From positions 34,120-66,119 of the forward strand of contig PRDJ01000035.1 of assembly GCA_003345555.1 (NCBI GenBank): DNA of 32,000 bases, given 5' to 3'. The position numbers and the translations under genes were made by a program. The DNA is from Candidatus Thorarchaeota archaeon (GTDB taxonomy: Archaea; Asgardarchaeota; Thorarchaeia; Thorarchaeales; Thorarchaeaceae). Numbering within the stretch: position 1 is the first letter of the stretch; every line of letters starts with the position of its first letter. Shown piece by piece: positions 306 through 22,651 of the stretch. Under the pieces are notes generated by a model that had not been told where the DNA came from, did not search any database, and saw only the letters and a list, made by a program, of their open reading frames with translations.

Positions 306-602
306 GTTTGGACTTCTTTGCAGCAAAGGCTGCTGTGACTCCGTGTCACTGGAAGCCACCGCAACCATTATTGGCATCGAGTGACATGAGCAATCCGCAA
401 CGTCCGCTCTTCTTTTCAAAAGATAGGACGGTCGTGGGGAAGTGATTCCACGTGACTTGGCCATCTCGGTGTTTGTCTGGTATCGGCTCCGCCATCGGCA
501 ATGAGCAGTCTCCGAGCCGGGGGTACTGCCAAGGTAGGTTCACTTCGCTGCCATCAAGGGACAGCAACAGTTATTGACCCCAAGAACTGTCTCAGTTCAG
601 AG

Positions 603-2996
603 ATGCCTGCGAAGAAGTACTACACAGCGTGCTCACTGAACTGCCCAGACATATGCGCGTTCGTGGTTCAAGTAGAGGGCGGTCGCATTGTCAGACTTGA
701 GGGTGACAGGAACCATCCATACACATTGGGCAGATGCTGTCCAAAGGGTTATGCCCATGTGCTCAGAATGTATTCGCCCGACAGGATATTGTACCCTCAG
801 CGGCGTCAGGCTGACGGTACCTTCAAGAGAATCGCTTGGAATGATGCGCTCGACGAGATTGCTGTCGATATTGACGATGCTCGCAGGAAGTTCGGTGCGC
901 AGTCTGTGGGCATATACTGCGGCTCGGGAAATGATGGGCTAGCCCCTAAGTATGCCAGCAGATTTGCGAACACGCTTGGCTGCAGAATGATTCCGGGGAT
1001 TGTCGAAATCTGTTTCGAAGGTGCGTACGAGGGTGCTCGGTTCAATGTCGGCCCTTTTCCTCCTCACGAGCTAAGCGACTGGGCGAACTCGCGATGTATT
1101 GTGGTATGGGGTACGAACAAGTTCGAATCCAGCATTCACTCGAAGAGAGTCATCAAAGAAGCGACCGATCACGGCGCGAGACTGATTGTCATAGACCCTC
1201 GCAAGACTCCACTCGCAAAGATAGCTGACATCTACACAACCATTAGACCAGGGACTGACGGAGCACTTGCTCTTGGAATTGCGAATGAGATAATCAAGAG
1301 AGACCTGTATGATCACGAGTTTGTCGATAGATACGTTGTCGGCTTCGAGGAGTACAAGCGCAGAGTGGCTGAATACGACAAGAGGACCGTGAGCGAGATA
1401 ACTTGGGTGGATGCCAACACAATTGAAGCCATAGCTCACACATTTGCCGTTCACGGACCCGGTCTCTTAATGACAGCTCCTGCTGGGATGAATCACTATA
1501 CGAATGGAACTTGGGCCGCGAGGGCAGTGCATAGTCTTCTTGCAATATGCGGCTACTTGGGTGTTTCAGGAGGCGGTTTTCAGTATCTCTCATCCGATCG
1601 CGGTCCCTTCCAAAGCTCTTCGATTACGCTTGCTGACATGCTTCCAAGTTCAGTCAGACCTGTTGTCGAGTCGGGAACGCATATTCCGGAATACGTGCTG
1701 AGTCATGAGGAATCACCTCTCAAGGTGTTCATCATTCAGGCGGCAAGTCCTATTACTCAGTGGCCGAATACGAAGAAGACTAGGGCGGCACTTGAGCGAA
1801 TTCCTCTCAAGGTCTGTATCGATATCGAGATGACCGACACAGCCCGGTTGTGTGACATCGTCCTCCCCGCGACAACATTGTTCGAACATCATAACTTAAT
1901 GCACAGCGAACTTCACAGGATTGTCCAATATGCACCGAAGATTGTGGAGCCACCGGGCGAGGCAAGGCATGAGCTGGAAATCTGGAAAGGAATCGCAGAG
2001 AAGCTCGGGCTTGGCAAGTTCTTCCGACTAACAGAGCTTGATGCGATAAAGCTTGCACTGGGAGGTCATGATTGTGAAGGGATTACGCTCGATGAACTTA
2101 AGCGGCATCCGGGCGGCATGAGAACTAGGAGTCCGGCTATCCCATTCGCAGATCGCCACTTTCTCACGCCATCAGGCAAAGTCGAGCTGTATTCCAAAAC
2201 GTTGGCGAATTTGGGCTATGACCCTTTGCCGTACCACCAGGAGCCAGCTGAAAGCCCTGTATCCACGCCTGAGATTTTCAGAAACTACCCACTAATCATG
2301 ATTTCTGGTAGGCTACGGAACCGATTGCACTCACAGTACACTACCGTGGAAGTCGGAGCTGAGGCCAAGGCCTATTCTGAATGTACAACTTGTCAGAAGT
2401 GTGTCAAAGACTGCAAGGACGAGGCAATATCCCTACAGTCACCCAGCATCGAGATGATTCGCCGGGTTTCTAGCGAGAATCCAGAGACGCGTGCCAAGAT
2501 GCGTGAAAAGCTAAGTGAGAGTGTGAAAGGACTTGCCATCACTGGCTCAGAAATAGTGATAGCTATTCCCAACAGCATCACTGGACTCCAAGTCCCCATA
2601 TGGGACCCGGTCAAGTGCATAGGGTGCAGAGAGTGTAATCTGGACATCTGTCCTTTCAAGGTCGTGACGGAACCAATTAGAATGCCCTCGATGCTCCAGA
2701 CCCCTACGCATCGAACGTTCCTGAGGATGAACCCGGTTGCTGCAGAGCGGCTCGGCCTCTCTGATGGAGACTCAGTCCGCGTGGAATCCATCAGAGGGGC
2801 AATCGAGGGTATCCAGCTTGAATTGACAGAAGACATCGATTCCAGGGTCGTGTGGGCATCCGACGGTTGGTGGGAGAGAGACGGCAACATTAACCTCCTG
2901 ACCGATGACAAACACACGGCGTTCGGACACACGCCGGGCTTCAACTCGGTTCTTGTGCGAGTCTCTAGGGTCGAGCACGGTGCACGTCAGCTCTAG
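603..2996 (+). CDS. Mo/W-bisPGD (DMSO reductase superfamily) oxidoreductase catalytic subunit with an N-terminal [4Fe-4S] site and an inserted 2x[4Fe-4S] ferredoxin domain
   Basis: N-terminal CSLNCPDIC...CCPKG; WGTN, VIDPR, IRPGTDGALALG, DIVLPA and TPSGKVELYS motifs; C-terminal domain IV motifs (LIMISGR..HSQ, MNPVAAERLGLSDGDSVRVES). Likely Cys metal ligand in EICFEGA. Start moved from 501 to ATG 603 (MPAKKYYTAC) because the upstream 34 codons show no family or TAT signal features. Confidence 0.9.
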   Translation: MPAKKYYTACSLNCPDICAFVVQVEGGRIVRLEGDRNHPYTLGRCCPKGYAHVLRMYSPDRILYPQRRQADGTFKRIAWNDALDEIAVDIDDARRKFGAQSVGIYCGSGNDGLAPKYASRFANTLGCRMIPGIVEICFEGAYEGARFNVGPFPPHELSDWANSRCIVVWGTNKFESSIHSKRVIKEATDHGARLIVIDPRKTPLAKIADIYTTIRPGTDGALALGIANEIIKRDLYDHEFVDRYVVGFEEYKRRVAEYDKRTVSEITWVDANTIEAIAHTFAVHGPGLLMTAPAGMNHYTNGTWAARAVHSLLAICGYLGVSGGGFQYLSSDRGPFQSSSITLADMLPSSVRPVVESGTHIPEYVLSHEESPLKVFIIQAASPITQWPNTKKTRAALERIPLKVCIDIEMTDTARLCDIVLPATTLFEHHNLMHSELHRIVQYAPKIVEPPGEARHELEIWKGIAEKLGLGKFFRLTELDAIKLALGGHDCEGITLDELKRHPGGMRTRSPAIPFADRHFLTPSGKVELYSKTLANLGYDPLPYHQEPAESPVSTPEIFRNYPLIMISGRLRNRLHSQYTTVEVGAEAKAYSECTTCQKCVKDCKDEAISLQSPSIEMIRRVSSENPETRAKMREKLSESVKGLAITGSEIVIAIPNSITGLQVPIWDPVKCIGCRECNLDICPFKVVTEPIRMPSMLQTPTHRTFLRMNPVAAERLGLSDGDSVRVESIRGAIEGIQLELTEDIDSRVVWASDGWWERDGNINLLTDDKHTAFGHTPGFNSVLVRVSRVEHGARQL

Positions 2997-3026
2997 GCGC
3001 GCTCGACCTTGGCGCATTGGCAAATC

Positions 3027-4301
3027 CTATGACCAGAATGGAACTATGATGAACATGTAGACAGTTGCAGTTGCAAGGTGTATCAGACCCACCGTCATAG
3101 CCAGCTTTATGAATTCGGCCCATGAAATATGACTCTCATTCTCCTCGGCCAATGAGACAACGTACATGTTGGGTGCATCACCAAAGGGTATTGTATAACC
3201 TCCCATGTTCACACCGGCCACGAGTGATGTTGCGACAATGGGGCTTCCTCCAGGGAATTCCGCGGCCACCGGGGCCATCAATGCACCAACTGCAGTCGTA
3301 TCTAGGATCCCTATTGCAAAGCCTGGTACCCATATGAAGACGAAAGCAGCAATGTACATGTTGCCACCGACAAGAGCAACCAATCCACCCACTAGGTCGG
3401 TGACAACGTTCGTGACCGACAGAGACGCGACGAGACCCAGAAGCCCAACCACAAAGAAAACAGTTTCCCAAGATAACTGCTGAAGGAGGTCCTTCGCTCT
3501 GTCGAATGATATCACCAGCAGTGCGGAGGCAACAAGAACCGCGACCATGGCCGATTCATTCGGGACAAGGATAAGCCCTGCCATGAGAACGCCCAAGGTG
3601 AGTATCGAGAGGTAGAAGTCAAAGCGCGACTTGATCATTACTCTTGGGTCAACTTGGAAGAGTTCGCTTGTCTCGTCGAACTTGCCCGGCACCAAGACAT
3701 CCTTGTAGTAGTTTAGCAGAAACACAATTGTCACAAGCAATAGAATCACTGATAGAGGCATGAGGATGACGAACATTGACCCAACATCGAGATTGGCGAG
3801 GCGAACAATCAGTAAGTTCGGGATGCTACCAATAGGTGTCGGGAGGGAGCCTAGGTCTGCCACTATGATTTCTCCGATTAAGAATGGCCTGAAATCGATT
3901 CCGAGACCACGACAAATCTCAACCGTGAACGTGGCCATTATGATGATTGTCGGGAGAGGAGGAATGAAAGGTGACATGACAAAAACAATGGTCATGAACA
4001 CGAGGAAGACTTTGCGAGGGTCGCCTCTCGTACGTTTCGCCAGAATAAGGGCCGTATACTGAAACATGCCGGAGGAACCCACGACCGATATTATGATCAT
4101 CATTGCCATGACAAACAGTATCGTATCCCAGTTCATGGCATTCAGCATCTCAACGAATCCATACCCACCCACTGCATACAACACAGCCGCTGCGAGACCC
4201 ATCGAGAAGAGCACTACTGCCGTGTCGTCGAATTTCTCGATTAACAGCACTACGAGTGTGACAATGAATATAATCAGACAAATAATACCTGCAATCTCCA
4301 A
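3027..4301 (-). CDS. ArsB/NhaD/P-protein (SLC13/IT superfamily)-type permease, paralog 1
   Basis: Highly hydrophobic, 424 aa. WDTILF, SGMFQY, PTPIGSIPN and IPFGDAPN motifs. TTG start with GGAG upstream. Confidence 0.85.
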   Translation of the reverse strand: MEIAGIICLIIFIVTLVVLLIEKFDDTAVVLFSMGLAAAVLYAVGGYGFVEMLNAMNWDTILFVMAMMIIISVVGSSGMFQYTALILAKRTRGDPRKVFLVFMTIVFVMSPFIPPLPTIIIMATFTVEICRGLGIDFRPFLIGEIIVADLGSLPTPIGSIPNLLIVRLANLDVGSMFVILMPLSVILLLVTIVFLLNYYKDVLVPGKFDETSELFQVDPRVMIKSRFDFYLSILTLGVLMAGLILVPNESAMVAVLVASALLVISFDRAKDLLQQLSWETVFFVVGLLGLVASLSVTNVVTDLVGGLVALVGGNMYIAAFVFIWVPGFAIGILDTTAVGALMAPVAAEFPGGSPIVATSLVAGVNMGGYTIPFGDAPNMYVVSLAEENESHISWAEFIKLAMTVGLIHLATATVYMFIIVPFWS

Positions 4302-4529: not shown

Positions 4530-5801
4530 TCAAACCAGCGCGGCTACCGCAAAAAGATAGGCTGTCGATATTGCCAGATGGACCAACCCGAGCGGCGTGA
4601 CGGCTTTCGTGAAATCCATCCATGAAATCGGCCCACGGTTCTTCTCGGCTAAGTCCCGAAGATACATGTTAGGGGCATCTCCAAACGGGATGACATACAC
4701 TGAGAAGTTCAATCCGGCAACCATTGAGATGGGCACTATTCTGTTCAACGATGCGAACTCCACACTCATGGGCGCAAGAAAGGCTGCTATAGGGATAGTG
4801 TCAAACGCAGACATTACAAATCCGGGCAGCCATATCATCACCAAGATGGCGATGAATACGTTGTTGCCCACGACGGCAGTCATTGCTGCCACGAGATCTG
4901 TGGAGACGCCTGTCACTTGCAGTGCTGCGACAATTCCGAATAGGCCCACAATGAAAAAGACCGTGTTCCAAGACAGCTGGTTCAACAGAACCTTAGCTCT
5001 CTGGAACGAAATCACCAGCAGTCCTCCGGCAACAACGAGAGCCACGGTCACAGACTCTGTAGGGACGAGTACCAGTCCTGTTATCAGTACTGCAAGCGCA
5101 ATAGCTGAGACAAAAAAGTCGAGTCTCGAGCGTATCATGAGTCTTGGCTCTATATCAAAGAGATGGCTGGCTGCAGCGCCTGGAAGCTGTGCGAAGACCT
5201 GTCGGTAGTACCTGAGGAAGTACCAAATTGTCACTCCCAGAAGAAGTAATGACAATGGGAACAGAGTGACGAACATGAGGCCGATGTTCATTTCGGTGAG
5301 GGACACGACAATCATGTTTGGAATTGATCCTATCGGACTTGGTATGGAGGCAGAGTTAGCTACAACAGCCTCTGAGAGCAAGTATGGTCTGAAATCGATT
5401 CCAAGGGAGTTGCATACTTCCGCGGTGAAGGCACCTATTATCAAAATGGTCGGCAGGGGTTGCAGCACGAGCGATACTACAAATACAAACCCCATGAGAA
5501 CCATGAATAATCTCCTTGGCTCCCCTCGGGTCCAGCGAGCAAGAACGAGGGCCATATACTGAAACATGCCCGAAGAACCTAGGACGGATATGATGATCAT
5601 CATCGCCGCTATGAAAAGAACGGTGTCCCAGTAGATACTACCTAGCATGGCTGTGAAAGCTATGTTGTTGAAGGTATAAAGCACCAGAGCACATAGTCCC
5701 AACGAGAAAAGTGCAACAGCTGTTTCATCAAGTCTGCCAAGCAGTATGACCAGTAAAGTCCCGACGAATATAATCAGGCAGATTATCCCGGCTATGTCCA
5801 T
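4530..5801 (-). CDS. ArsB/NhaD/P-protein (SLC13/IT superfamily)-type permease, paralog 2 (tandem duplicate of paralog 1)
   Basis: MDIAGIICLIIF matches MEIAGIICLIIF of paralog 1, so the start is placed at ATG 5801 rather than GTG 5810. WDTVLF, SSGMFQY, PSPIGSIPN and IPFGDAPN motifs. Confidence 0.85.
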   Translation of the reverse strand: MDIAGIICLIIFVGTLLVILLGRLDETAVALFSLGLCALVLYTFNNIAFTAMLGSIYWDTVLFIAAMMIIISVLGSSGMFQYMALVLARWTRGEPRRLFMVLMGFVFVVSLVLQPLPTILIIGAFTAEVCNSLGIDFRPYLLSEAVVANSASIPSPIGSIPNMIVVSLTEMNIGLMFVTLFPLSLLLLGVTIWYFLRYYRQVFAQLPGAAASHLFDIEPRLMIRSRLDFFVSAIALAVLITGLVLVPTESVTVALVVAGGLLVISFQRAKVLLNQLSWNTVFFIVGLFGIVAALQVTGVSTDLVAAMTAVVGNNVFIAILVMIWLPGFVMSAFDTIPIAAFLAPMSVEFASLNRIVPISMVAGLNFSVYVIPFGDAPNMYLRDLAEKNRGPISWMDFTKAVTPLGLVHLAISTAYLFAVAALV

Positions 5802-5922
5802 GTCAATCACGTTTCAACTCGTGGTACTACGGAGAGCTGTTTGTGGCTGGAGCCGTCAGGAAGTAATCGCAATAAATAAGTGTCGCGTCTAGCCTCTGCT
5901 GAAAAGACCGGTCGCTGATCGT

Positions 5923-16299: not shown

Positions 16300-18942
16300 T
16301 TAGGCTTTCACATCTTTGTTCCTGTATGCTACTGGGCTTGCATCAAAGGTCTTCTTGCAGTTCGGGCTACAGAAGTAGTACCTCTTTCCCATGAAGTCAC
16401 TGTACAGCGCCGCTGTCTGGATGTCTACATCCATCTTGCATACGGGATCGATGGCGATGCCCGACTTCCTATCCTCGGATGGAAGCACCGTTGTGGCTCC
16501 CTCGCCCAATGGCCTAGGCTTGAACCTGCCAAGGAACAATGCATTCGTGACAACGCTGACGCTGGATAGCGACATGGCGAGGCCAGCATACTCTGGTCTT
16601 AGTACTAAGCCCATTAGCGGTACGAAGACACCAGCCGCTATCGGAAGCAAAGCCAAGTTGTATACGAACGCCCAGAAGAATCCTTGCTTAATCTTGGTCA
16701 TCGTCTTGCGACCGAGCTCAATGCCCGATACAACGTCCAGGAGATTGTCTTTCACAAGTACGATATCCCCGGTCTCCACTGATACGTCCGTACCTGAGCC
16801 CAAGGCAATACCGACATCGGCTTGAGCCAGAGCAGGAGCGTCATTTACGCCGTCGCCTACCATTGCCACTGTGCGTCCTTCAAGTTGGAGGCCCTTCACT
16901 TTGATTGCTTTGTCCGCAGGTAACACTTCTGCAAGAACGTTATCAATTCCAAGACTTCTCGCCACGGCTCGTGCTGTCTTCTCCTTATCCCCGCTAATCA
17001 TCCAGACATTGAGACCCATGCTACGAAGTGCTTTGACTGCCCTTGCTGAACTCTCTTTGGGTGGGTCAGCTATAGCCAGCGCGGCGAGTGGCCTGCCATC
17101 GATTGCTGAGTATACCACCGTCTTGCCCTGTTCCTCAAGCGCGTCGCTCTTGGTATCAATCTGAGAAATGTCGATGGAATTCTCCCGCATGTAATGGTCA
17201 TTTCCGATGATTATCGTGGAGCCGTCCACGGTGGCACGGACTCCTTTGCCAGAATCGGAAATGAAATCGTCAACTCGGAGAAATTCAATCTCTCTCTCTT
17301 GTGCATAACGAACGACCGCCTCAGCCAGAGGATGTGCACTATTCTTCTCCACCGATGATATCAGCTGCAATGCTTTGGTTGCATCGGTATTCGAGGCGTA
17401 GATGAGGTCTGTAACGGTAGGCTTCCCGACGGTCAGTGTTCCTGTCTTGTCGAACACGACTGTGTCAATCCTAGGAATTGCTTCGAGCCCCGCTCCCGTC
17501 TTGAAGAGTATACCCTCCTTGGCTCCTCTTCCTATCCCCACCATAATCGCCGTAGGGGTAGCCAAGCCCAGGGCACATGGACACGCGGCGACAAGGACAG
17601 CTATTGTGAAACTCAATGCTCTCACCCAACCTGCACCCATGAACACCACCCACGACACGAATGTCGCGGCTGCCAGTATTAGGACAATCGGGACGAATAC
17701 TTCTGCGATCGCGTCAGCCCTTCTCTGGATTGCAGGTTTCTGGGTCTGAGCTACCTCAACGAGCCGCACAATCTGGGACAAGACAGTGTCCTGTCCGACC
17801 TTCGTAGCTCTTATCCTGAGTGCTCCACTCCTGTTTATCGTGGCGCCGACGGCTGAGTCTCCCACATTCTTGGTGACCGGCATTGATTCTCCTGTGATCA
17901 TTGATTCATCAACAGTAGATTGTCCCTCTACAACTTCGCCATCTACTGGCACCTTGTCACCAGGTCTCACCAATATTATGTCACCGACTTCCACATCCTC
18001 AGCAGGGATTACGATCTCTTGGCCATTCCTCTCGACAATAGCTACCTGGGCTTGAAGGTTCATCAGGCTCCTGATGGCTCTCGAGGTTCGACCCTTGGCG
18101 ATGGCCTCAAGCGTCCTGCCTAGGAGAATGAATGTAATCAACAGAGCCGCAGTATCGTAGAACGTCAAGTAACCCGGTAGCACAAACGTTGCCGCTACGG
18201 AATAGAAATAGGCTGCACTAGTCCCTAGCATTATGAGCAGATCCATGTTGGTCTTGCCATGCCGAAGTACTCTGAGGCTTGACCGGTAGAAAGGATAGCC
18301 CGCGACGAATTGAATGGGGGTCGTCAAGATGAATAGCACAAAGTCTGCAGACACCCCTGGGGGTATGAATGGAATCAACACTCCAAGCATGATCAACAGC
18401 ACTGGGACAGTCAAGACTGTGGCAAAGGCCAGCAAGCCCGAATAGTAGTGAACTTCCCTCTCTCTTGCCAACGACTCTCTATCAACACGTGAGGTACTAG
18501 TGTCCACTATGCTGTAACCTAGCTCCTTGAGTGCTCGTTTGACAATCTTGGACGTAACCAAATCCTCGTCGTACTCAACAAGAAGGCGTCCGCTGTCCTC
18601 ATAATTCCTTACACTGATAACGCCGTCAAGATTCTTGATCCTCTCTGAGATGGGCTGCCATTCTTCTCGCTGAGGATGAGGATTAAGAGTCAGAGTCATG
18701 GCCGGCCTTCTTGCGCGATATCCTGTCGAGTTGACTGCTTCCTCCAATGTTCGACGATCTACCTTGCCTGCCTCGTATTCAACTACAGCTTTCTCATCCA
18801 GTAGACTCACGGCCGCACTGACGACACCTTCCTGTTTGAGAAGCGACTTCTCGACGGTCGCCACACAGGATGCGCAGTGCATCCCCTCTATCTTCAGTGA
18901 CATTCGCGATTTGGTCGCTGACTCGCGCGATTCAGTACTCAA
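16300..18942 (-). CDS. copA: Cu(I)-translocating P1B-type ATPase with HMA, degenerate HMA and C-terminal YHS/TRASH domains
   Basis: [40 protein letters not shown], and YN and MSLSS Cu(I)-type TM motifs. C-terminal DPVCKM...[15 protein letters not shown] start with GGTGG upstream (ATG 18903 is an alternative). Confidence 0.93.
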
Positions 18943-19045: not shown

Positions 19046-19630
19046 TCAGCCCACGAACAGGTCACTTTCTCCACTTTCGGCCAGCTTCATCATTCGCAGC
19101 AGCTCTGTGAATGTATGTTGTATATTCTCACCTGTCTTAGCTGATGTCTCGATAAAGTAGGCCGGCACATTGAGCTTGGCTTTGAAATACTCCGCAAACT
19201 TCCGGCCTTCGTCAGGAGTCACACTGTCCTTTGCCGGGGTTCGTGGTCGGAGGTCCACTTTGTTACCTACTATGACGGTGGGCGGCAACGGCCCCATGTT
19301 GCGGTAGGCTTCCACGAGCCATTTGGAAGCGTTCTCGAATGATCTTCGGTCGACCACAGAGTACACCAAGATGATTCCATTGCAGCCATGATAGTAGTGG
19401 CCTCTGACTTTCTCGAATGTAGGTTGCCCGGCCAAATCCCATATTATGAACTTCACGACTTCGTCCTCGAAGAGTATTCGCTTTGTCGCAAGGTCAACTC
19501 CTATGGTTGCGATATGACCCTCGATGAAGTCCTCTCCTAGGTAATTGCGCCGCATGCTGGTCTTGCCTACGGCACCATCTCCTATGAGAACTGCCTTCAG
19601 AATCCTGCTGCCGTCGTCTTGGTCCTTCAT
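19046..19630 (-). CDS. Ras-superfamily small GTPase, Rab-like
   Basis: G1 GDGAVGKT, G2 ATIG, G3 WDLAGQ, G4 NKVD, G5 SAK. RabF-like IGVDL, KFIIW, YYHGC and LVYSV. No C-terminal Cys. Confidence 0.92.
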   Translation of the reverse strand: MKDQDDGSRILKAVLIGDGAVGKTSMRRNYLGEDFIEGHIATIGVDLATKRILFEDEVVKFIIWDLAGQPTFEKVRGHYYHGCNGIILVYSVVDRRSFENASKWLVEAYRNMGPLPPTVIVGNKVDLRPRTPAKDSVTPDEGRKFAEYFKAKLNVPAYFIETSAKTGENIQHTFTELLRMMKLAESGESDLFVG

Positions 19631-21120: not shown

Positions 21121-22404
21121 CTAGTGGAGAAGCAACGTCAGCATCAGAATCCATCCAGTGCCAATGACCATCATCAGCAGCGCTATTGGCATTGCCGCTT
21201 TCGCAAAACCCCGCATCCCTATCGGATTCTCTTCAGCTTCAGATAATGCGAGGGCGATTACGTTCGCCGGAGAGCCTATTGGTAGAATAAAGGCGCCGAC
21301 ATTGACGCCAAACACAAGCGCAAGAGGAGGCATTGGACCCGCGGTTGCAGCCTCAACAGCCAATGGGGCAAGTAGAGCCGCTATTGGCACGTTATCGATT
21401 ACTGACGATAGCAGGCCCGGAATCCAAATCATGAAGAGCGTGACACTGACTGCTCCGCCGCTGATGAATGCGTCTGCCCAGTTGGCTATGTCCGCGAGTA
21501 CGCCAGTCGCCTCAAGTGCGGCGACAATCCCAAAAATCCCTATTACGAAGAACACAGTGCCCCACCCAACCTCGCGCAAAACCCTGTCCACATCGTGCTC
21601 CGTCAATAGGAGCATGATTGCCGCGATTGTTATCGACACTAAGCTTGCTTCCAACCCCTCGGCAACGCCTACTGTGAAAGCCAATATGAGGGCAATCATC
21701 GCTATGATGGACATGTAGAACTCAATTCTCGAACGAATGAGAGTCGTCGGGTCAATCTTGAACAGTTCTTCTGCTGTGGCCTTGTTGCTTGCAGTTAGGG
21801 AGTTTCTATAGAAGCGACGGAGCAAAGGCAGCGATACAATGAGGAGAATGAAAGACAGAGGCATCAAGGTAACAAACTGGAATCCCGGGTTGATTCCTGT
21901 TGCAGTCGCTACAACTAGATTCGGCACGTCACCCACGACGGAAGGTATAGAAGCGAAGTTTGCGACTATGGCCTCGGAAACAAGGAAGGCCTTGATGTCG
22001 AGGTCTAGTGCCCTGCACAACTCAATCGTAATTGGCCCGACTATTAGCATCGTGGATGTTGTGTCGAAGAATAGGGAGATGAAAAACACGAAAACCAAGA
22101 ATGTCGTAAACAATCGAGGTGGGTTGCCGCCGCTAGGGAGGGCCATCCTGAGGGCAATATACTGATACATGCCCGAGGCACGAGATATGCCAACAATAAT
22201 CATCTGACCCGTTATGAATAACACAGTGTACCATCCAATGCGTTCAGTCAACGCTTGGAATGAGCTCACGTGTGCTGCCCAGAGAATCAAAGCGACAATC
22301 CCCATACCCGTAAGCGACATTGCAGTCCTGTTGACTCTCTCACTTGTTATTGCACTGTAGGTAACAATGAACACTAATACGACAAGTCCGCCGACTAGAT
22401 CCAT
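21121..22404 (-). CDS. ArsB/NhaD/P-protein (SLC13/IT superfamily)-type permease, paralog 3
   Basis: SGMYQY, FDTTST, NFASIPSVVGDVPN, IDNVP, NVGAFILPIGSPAN. Start at ATG 22404 has GAGG upstream (22413 is an alternative). Confidence 0.87.
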   Translation of the reverse strand: MDLVGGLVVLVFIVTYSAITSERVNRTAMSLTGMGIVALILWAAHVSSFQALTERIGWYTVLFITGQMIIVGISRASGMYQYIALRMALPSGGNPPRLFTTFLVFVFFISLFFDTTSTMLIVGPITIELCRALDLDIKAFLVSEAIVANFASIPSVVGDVPNLVVATATGINPGFQFVTLMPLSFILLIVSLPLLRRFYRNSLTASNKATAEELFKIDPTTLIRSRIEFYMSIIAMIALILAFTVGVAEGLEASLVSITIAAIMLLLTEHDVDRVLREVGWGTVFFVIGIFGIVAALEATGVLADIANWADAFISGGAVSVTLFMIWIPGLLSSVIDNVPIAALLAPLAVEAATAGPMPPLALVFGVNVGAFILPIGSPANVIALALSEAEENPIGMRGFAKAAMPIALLMMVIGTGWILMLTLLLH

Positions 22405-22651
22405 AGGATGCATTCCTCGTTCTGTGCTCTTGTGAATGGCCTTGACAGTGTGTCCCAGTCAGGATGCGGAGTATGGCAAGCTATGCAGATGGGTTCACCC
22501 TATTAACTTCCGCGGATGCAATTCGTACTGAGCTGTTCTTCTCCAGAGCTTGAAGCAATATCAGTTCGTCCCACCAGCGTCAGTGAAAGCTGTCATCGAG
22601 CTCATGCGGGCAAGAGAGATATGCCGCTTCTTGTGCAACTGACCATGCAAG

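Follow-up and report, generated by a model that had tools for sequence, protein, structure and literature searches.

Enzymes of the MopB superfamily are textbook modular redox enzymes, in which extra iron-sulfur (Fe-S) clusters have so far been found in separate subunits or in terminal fusions. Beta subunits of the FdnH, DmsB, PsrB and NarH type are separate chains with three or four clusters, encoded beside the catalytic subunit, whose ferredoxin folds move electrons from FS0, the N-terminal cluster of that subunit, to a partner. Formate dehydrogenases of the FdhA/FdsA type have N-terminal NuoG-like Fe-S modules and some assimilatory nitrate reductases have C-terminal cluster domains; in both, the extra clusters belong to the catalytic chain as terminal fusions. 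In ActB of alternative complex III and in NuoG, too, one chain unites a MopB fold with clusters of the ferredoxin type; there the Fe-S domain stands before or after the MopB fold and the metal site is lost. Here we describe a candidate gene from a 32,000-nt stretch of a Candidatus Thorarchaeota genome (contig PRDJ01000035.1, positions 34,120 to 66,119; this whole stretch is referred to as the window), which is predicted to encode a MopB-type oxidoreductase with a 2x[4Fe-4S] ferredoxin module nested in domain IV.

The best solved relative of the product by sequence (E 4.6e-64) is acetylene hydratase from Pelobacter acetylenicus (2e7z), which contains tungsten with two pterin guanine dinucleotides (W-bisPGD) and one [4Fe-4S] cluster. 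Like the window protein, as predicted, acetylene hydratase is single-subunit and cytoplasmic; the two also share the FS0 domain, an aligned Cys metal ligand and the same domain order. Unlike the window protein, acetylene hydratase has no insert, and between the two the spacing of the FS0 Cys differs by a shift of one motif step. The window protein resembles the FdhA/FdsA enzymes and the nitrate reductases in carrying its putative extra clusters in the catalytic chain, but its module is nested, splitting Molydop_binding at profile position 26/27. In contrast to ActB and NuoG, it keeps the ligand Cys and the cofactor motifs. The beta subunits are the presumed functional equivalents of the module, from which the window protein differs in having two nested clusters, as predicted from its Cys motifs, and no such gene nearby.

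Anatomy of the gene and its product

The candidate gene (window 603-2996, + strand) encodes a 797-residue member of the MopB (Mo/W-bisPGD) superfamily. A longer open reading frame (ORF), 501-2996 (+), translates to 831 residues, of which M35 corresponds to nt 603 (MPAKKYY). Because a 100% identical database twin is 797 residues long and the homologs begin at the M35 equivalent, M35 is probably the true start and use of the longer ORF is unlikely. Residue numbers refer to the 797-residue protein unless the 831-residue ORF is stated. The features of the gene are as follows.

603..2996, + strand: MopB-type oxidoreductase gene (translation, 100%-identical 797-residue twin, homolog starts)
612..776, + strand: N-terminal FS0 [4Fe-4S] domain, Pfam Molybdop_Fe4S4 (Pfam, alignment)
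630-632, 642-644, 654-656, 738-740, + strand: FS0 Cys codons (invariant; spacing C-x3-C-x3-C-x27-C)
783..2003, + strand: Molybdopterin-oxidoreductase domains, Pfam PF00384 (151 bits versus a cutoff of 24)
1011..1013, + strand: Cys137, putative metal-ligand position (invariant; aligns with the ligands of acetylene hydratase and FdhF)
2286..2342, + strand: first strand of domain IV with the GR..R.HSQ motif (HSQ at 2328-2336)
2343..2726, + strand: inserted module, 128 residues (581-708), in place of a 14-15-residue loop
2382..2414, + strand: ferredoxin Cys motif 1, C-x2-C-x2-C-x3-C (translation, alignment)
2415..2615, + strand: linker of 67 residues with a predicted helix inside (homologous to the linker of free-standing long-linker ferredoxins)
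2616..2654, + strand: ferredoxin Cys motif 2, C-x2-C-x2-C-x4-C-P (translation, alignment)
2709..2951, + strand: remainder of the domain IV barrel, Pfam Molydop_binding, profile positions 27-109 (Pfam)

Molybdop_Fe4S4 (PF04879) scored 46.3 bits against a cutoff of 22.7, PF00384 scored 151.1 bits in the protein scan (cutoff 24) and 153.8 bits in the genome search, and Molydop_binding (PF01568) scored 66.6 bits against 26.8. The last of these matched residues 703-783 (737-817 of the 831-residue ORF) and covered only profile positions 27-109 of 110, the first 26 positions preceding the insert. These domains, together with the FS0 Cys and Lys residues and the Cys at the ligand position, place the predicted product in the MopB superfamily. 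Judging from conserved motifs only, it may hold Mo or W with two pterin guanine dinucleotides.

The FS0 motif departs from the usual C-x2-C-x3-C in that Tyr replaces the first Cys and an extra Cys lies four residues downstream, an arrangement that is invariant in the family. NarG-type enzymes have H-x3-C-x3-C, a spacing that resembles this one. The fourth FS0 Cys is followed two residues later by an invariant Lys48. In alignments, Cys137 falls on the W-ligand Cys141 of acetylene hydratase and on the Cys/Sec ligand of FdhF (7qv7); the next residue is Phe, not His. No signal or Tat peptide precedes the first FS0 Cys, ahead of which lie just nine residues, and the oxidoreductase is therefore probably cytoplasmic.

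By sequence, the enzyme appears to belong to the acetylene-hydratase-like branch of the MopB/DMSO-reductase superfamily. Identity with acetylene hydratase itself was ruled out: the catalytic Asp13 of that enzyme, beside the second FS0 Cys, corresponds to Ser in the window protein and to Ala in most family members. Acetylene hydratase is also a non-redox hydratase, with no need for two further clusters. A formate dehydrogenase (FdhF/FdhA) was ruled out as well, by a TIGR01591 score of 282 bits against a cutoff of 666 and by the Phe after Cys137. All 28 matches to curated NCBIfam MopB families (PhsA, DmsA, NasC, NapA, NarG, ArrA, TtrA and others) fell far below their cutoffs.

The insert and its conservation

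Frame 1 of window 2328-2735 is free of stops and reads HSQYTT ... RMNP. Between HSQ and the MNPVAAERLG strand, which begins at 2727, lies the 128-residue insert; an earlier inspection of the letters alone (the sequence-only reading) had put the distance at about 130 residues and had described eight Cys in two ferredoxin motifs with a linker of about 65 residues. The translation agrees, with both motifs present 67 residues apart. Nor was that reading far off in expecting a short loop of about 20 residues at this site in other enzymes. The alignment of 2e7z runs to query position 605 (chain 603) and restarts at query position 731 (chain 617), leaving 14 residues of its own. Among 1.84 billion representatives (one per 50% cluster of ~15 billion proteins), the closest insert-less relative is P0131, a protein of 699 residues with 36% identity over 578 residues, which has 15 residues where the window protein has residues 581-708. 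The net gain is ~113 residues at nt 2343-2726.

Conservation of the Cys residues among homologs, which the sequence-only reading had left to be checked, was complete: all eight insert Cys were invariant in 51 aligned full-length homologs, as were the four FS0 Cys (Cys10, Cys14, Cys18 and Cys46), Lys48, Cys137 and HSQ. The insert Cys, the FS0 Cys, Lys48 and Cys137 were also invariant in 11 genome-assigned copies. Both Cys motifs were found in 120 of 120 family sequences scanned, with an inter-motif distance of 64-68 residues in 121 of 122 sequences, and Arg, Leu and Pro recur at conserved positions of the linker. Directly after the fourth Cys of motif 1, the window protein has Lys and most homologs have Pro. 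Motif 2 departs from the usual type in its last gap, which is four residues long instead of three.

A word-indexed search returned 231 relatives, drawn from Logan, NCBI, JGI and ENA assemblies. Over the C-terminal 272 residues, the 120 listed show 56-100% identity, and most are ~790 residues long; many homologs carry precomputed Fer4 hits. Logan contigs from wetland metagenomes contain the stretch, one of them spanning 1274-3100 with zero differences, and contigs from a second sample also cross both insert junctions. The gene and its insert are under purifying selection. Between the source genome (G000) and a congeneric genome (G333), the ratio of non-synonymous to synonymous substitution rates (dN/dS) was 0.087 over the whole gene; by part, the core gave 0.064, the insert 0.227 and the remainder of domain IV 0.148.

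Nature of the inserted module

A profile of the C-terminal 253 residues, searched against the 1.84 billion representatives, also matched small proteins of ~160 residues and one of 294 residues, at the insert positions only. These proteins consist of two repeats of a helix, a short strand and a CxxCxxCxxxC motif and exceed Pfam Fer4 cutoffs (Fer4 51.6 versus 21.1). According to hhalign, an alignment of 120 inserts matched seven such proteins with a probability of 99.4% and an E of 4e-21 over 107 columns at 23% identity; the match extended from the Gly before motif 1 through the entire linker to motif 2. Judged by its sequence, the insert is homologous to a long-linker 2x[4Fe-4S] ferredoxin module.

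Members of this ferredoxin family are free-standing (~160 residues), fused to MvhD/FlpD (~266-318 residues) or C-terminal modules of larger proteins, and they share with the insert the motif spacing and the Arg, Leu and Pro positions of the linker. They differ from the insert in being independent proteins or terminal fusions and in having a second copy of the helix-strand unit that precedes the motif. Since the insert is homologous to such free-standing and fused dicluster ferredoxins, a pre-existing electron-transfer module would seem to have been spliced into domain IV, with a domain IV strand taking the place of the first helix-strand unit of the module.

Asgard genomes contain the module in free-standing form, fused to MvhD/FlpD (~318 residues) and at the C-terminus of 750-780-residue proteins whose genes adjoin those for HdrB-like (CCG), HdrC-like and FlpD proteins. 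The label Odinarchaeia is attached to one free-standing member, and a protein labelled Bathyarchaeia belongs to the FlpD-fused cluster. The 750-780-residue proteins have almost no Pfam match beyond the C-terminal long-linker dicluster ferredoxin; two of their genes (L016:773-3052 (+) and L020:2302-4551 (-)) adjoin FlpD, HdrB-like (CCG), HdrC-like and acyl-CoA dehydrogenase genes. The 318-residue ferredoxin-FlpD fusions (L018:1058-2011 (-)) sit beside HdrA-like genes.

An insert-only AlphaFold2 (AF2) model, computed with the insert alignment, had a mean predicted local distance difference test score (pLDDT) of 75.8. Its best match in the PDB was the C-terminal domain of HdrA (7bkb_A 586-653; Z-score 6.4, root-mean-square deviation 3.1 Å, 68 residues aligned), and all top matches were 2x[4Fe-4S] domains, namely those of HdrA, the ABCE1 N-terminal domain, HydB, PFOR delta, RnfB, PsaC and NuoI. 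The best curated matches of the module were NuoI-like and below cutoffs. Foldseek found no match of the insert model in the PDB at E 0.001 or better (0.03 or worse), and sequence and profile searches of the PDB with the insert returned generic single-motif ferredoxin matches only, with no solved long-linker relative.

Distribution and novelty

The C-terminal profile found three full-length matches and fragments at E < 1e-27, followed by a sharp fall to E 1e-21. From that point on, proteins of ~690-780 residues matched in two stretches flanking the insert, and these proteins therefore do not have it. Among the best 150 representatives, ferredoxin motifs in the C-terminal region of a MopB protein were confined to the family of the window protein. 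An atlas search gave C-terminal look-alikes in the form of clusters with Fer4 and Molydop_binding, at low scores (0.77-0.80) that make them leads only.

When 400 genomes from the phylum were surveyed, 51 of the 86 in the source's GTDB family gave strong matches (E 1e-30 or better) and none of the 314 others did. The architecture is thus restricted to one archaeal family within these 400 genomes. Named relatives, among the 120 listed, are annotated 'molybdopterin-dependent oxidoreductase' and derive from Thor-, Loki-, Odin- or Promethearchaeota metagenome-assembled genomes (MAGs); the few submitter labels reading Loki- or Odinarchaeota are not reconciled with the GTDB sample. Short extra matches to the C-terminal end of the same protein, or to its Molybdopterin domain, sit near the intact gene, some with an in-frame TGA (L024 (G333:C3, ~431036-431269), G321:C31:1443-1583, G364:C105:7637-7765 and G334:C39:4933-5007). 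By their sequence, these look like remnants of partial duplications.

The literature searched contains no account of a ferredoxin placed within domain IV; in a superfamily survey, the only mention is of seven acetylene-hydratase-family homologs in Asgard MAGs (PMC10100899). Under generic names, more than 200 public database proteins already have the architecture. The sequence-only reading knew of no described example, which agrees with the literature searched but needs qualifying: the databases contain many examples, and the module comes from an existing long-linker ferredoxin family. The superfamily and the module are known, and the nesting is apparently new. A dicluster ferredoxin within the cofactor-capping domain would be a further way to a self-sufficient enzyme and would show that electron transfer is compatible with a surface of domain IV. 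Because the enzyme is the sole MopB protein of the source genome and occurs in 51 of 86 family genomes, its reaction is a gap in metabolic models of Thorarchaeia.

A candidate electron relay

We consider it fairly probable that the protein is a cytoplasmic single-subunit Mo/W-bisPGD enzyme in which the nested module replaces a beta subunit as a built-in electron relay, giving three clusters in one chain. In this mechanism, the long-linker 2x[4Fe-4S] module would have entered the loop that follows the HSQ strand of domain IV and would stand in for the absent electron-transfer (beta) subunit. Through its two clusters, electrons would pass between FS0, pterin and metal on one side and an external low-potential partner on the other, which might be a ferredoxin or an Hdr/MvhD-type complex. 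The entire wire would lie in one polypeptide, comprising FS0 and the two clusters of the insert. Such an enzyme would offer structural and electrochemical studies a compact subject.

We favour the built-in relay because the cluster ligands are invariant, the module has an electron-transfer pedigree, FS0, Lys48 and Cys137 are kept, and no partner genes lie nearby. In 13 loci (the window and 12 others), no gene for a four-cluster ferredoxin, membrane anchor, maturation chaperone or beta subunit adjoins the oxidoreductase gene. The single chain with three clusters that the sequence-only reading proposed is matched by three predicted [4Fe-4S] sites, made up of the eight insert Cys and the FS0 Cys, and by the nesting of the module in domain IV. 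We infer that these sites bind clusters, that the module sits beside FS0 and that Mo or W is present, and likewise in which direction electrons would flow.

Several results weigh against the relay. Although Molydop_binding is split as the sequence-only reading expected, the intervening Fer4 hit did not appear above its cutoff: the Fer4-family Pfam scores of the window protein are sub-threshold, the best being 18.8 bits versus 27. The PDB matches of the insert model are middling (Z-scores of 5.0-6.4 over 52-84 aligned residues), and the linker has no counterpart in them. In the full-length AF2 model (mean pLDDT 76.6), the insert has a pLDDT of 40-55 and the geometry of the module is not fixed by the model. 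Gene context gave no hint of a substrate in the 13 loci, no RNA run containing the gene was listed, and the source genome and 28 of the 51 carriers lack MoaC and MoeA, which bears on cofactor supply.

We also predicted the protein as a split-chain complex, with residues 1-580, residues 709-797 and the insert as partner, and with three 4Fe-4S ligands. The outcome was marked 'weak support', with a score of 0.42 where the best of three controls had 0.00; it came with no contacts and, the pieces being one polypeptide, is uninformative on geometry. Of 80 solved complexes 58 earn this mark, as do 2 of 110 mismatched pairs; when the score is no higher than 0.60, the mark goes to just 7 of those 80 and to both of the mismatches that passed. 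The runs share at least 65% of contacts, with a partner pLDDT of at least 65.

A different arrangement, which we regard as unlikely, is that the module binds its two clusters off the FS0 line. It would then give electrons a way in or out of their own on the pterin-capping side, the speculative second exit route of the sequence-only reading, or act as a redox-sensing, structural or docking element, for instance for an Hdr/MvhD-type complex. The HSQ motif of domain IV contacts the pterin cofactor in this superfamily and the insertion lies just 5-6 residues after it, so the module could be near the pterin rather than near FS0. The fusion of module relatives to MvhD/FlpD and their proximity to HdrB/C-like genes also speak for this arrangement. 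Yet no measurement points to a distal position, both FS0 and the Lys beside it are invariant, and a single-subunit enzyme with no other relay would need access to FS0 from outside.

Cofactor supply and remaining alternatives

MoaC, the MoaA C-terminal domain, MoeA_N and MoaE were not detected in the 93%-complete source genome; the same searches for molybdenum cofactor (Moco) genes were positive in 11 of 14 control genomes, four archaea included. MoaC and MoeA_N are jointly present in about one-third of the genomes of the GTDB family, and both are missing from 28 of the 51 carrier genomes, including some rated 95-99% complete. Where present, MoaC and MoeA are adjacent, and the cluster thus behaves as an accessory unit. 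With these genes absent, the designation Mo/W-bisPGD enzyme stays putative.

The same genomes are rich in AOR genes, which occur in 85 of 86 family genomes with 4-15 matches each (10 in the source genome), and AOR, a tungstopterin enzyme, requires a pterin cofactor. The source genome also has an ORF for a MobA-like guanylyltransferase (best NCBIfam matches all MobA, E 7e-29, below cutoff) and a MoCF_biosynth domain. Key residues and overall identity (0.68-0.69) are equal between copies of the oxidoreductase from genomes with and without Moco genes, and constraint is strong also in a genus whose four genomes all have none. Since AOR-rich genomes too do without Moco genes and the copies do not differ with them, the missing genes are a general puzzle of these genomes and not evidence on the window protein. 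The many genes for pterin-dependent enzymes in genomes with no MoaC or MoeA raise a separate question about cofactor supply in uncultured archaea, and suggest cofactor salvage or an undescribed route.

A more far-reaching proposal joins these observations: the protein would represent a new self-contained type of Mo/W-pterin enzyme, passing electrons via the pterin-capping side of domain IV and not the FS0/beta face, coupled to a ferredoxin or an Hdr/MvhD-type bifurcating complex, in organisms apparently unable to make the pterin cofactor. We hold this to be quite unlikely. If true, it would imply cofactor salvage or an undescribed biosynthetic route in Thorarchaeia.

Lower still we place the idea that the protein is a cofactor-less MopB scaffold like NuoG, ActB or QrcB and serves only as a three-cluster wire or adaptor, which strikes us as improbable. 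It was raised by the absent Moco genes, that is, by the lack of detectable MoaC, MoeA_N, MoaA C-terminal domain and MoaE in the source genome and of MoaC and MoeA_N in more than half of the carriers, and was demoted once AOR genes had been found in nearly all family genomes. Given those AOR genes, the gene loss does not single out this protein. The scaffold is further opposed by the invariance of Cys137, HSQ and the usual nucleotide-binding motifs, by the low dN/dS of the core, with strong constraint also in the genus devoid of Moco genes, and by the MobA-like ORF.

An assembly chimera or sequencing artefact, which the sequence-only reading had named as a risk, has practically no chance of explaining the insert: no point in its favour was found, and it is refuted by the same layout in over 200 homologs from four kinds of source and in 51 genomes of one family, by independent contigs from two samples across both junctions, and by the open frame of the insert and the purifying selection on it.

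Gene neighbourhood

The window gene is the sole PF00384 match in the 2.28-Mb source genome. Recurrent neighbours in the 13 loci encode Peptidase_M29 (12 of 13), a CitMHS-type transporter (7 of 13), a DinB_2 protein (7 of 13) and a 1100-residue GNAT fusion (6 of 13). A redox partner is not among them, and this shared synteny may just reflect close kinship. The window holds three paralogous genes for anion transporters of the CitMHS/ArsB superfamily, at 3027-4301 (-), 4530-5810 (-) and 21121-22413 (-), the first two of which lie directly downstream of the oxidoreductase gene. The product of 16300-18942 (-) is a P-type ATPase that begins with an HMA domain, ends with a YHS domain and likely exports copper or heavy metals. 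At 19046-19630 (-) lies a gene for a Ras-family small GTPase (Pfam Ras, E 1.7e-42), which is a eukaryote-like feature characteristic of Asgard archaea.

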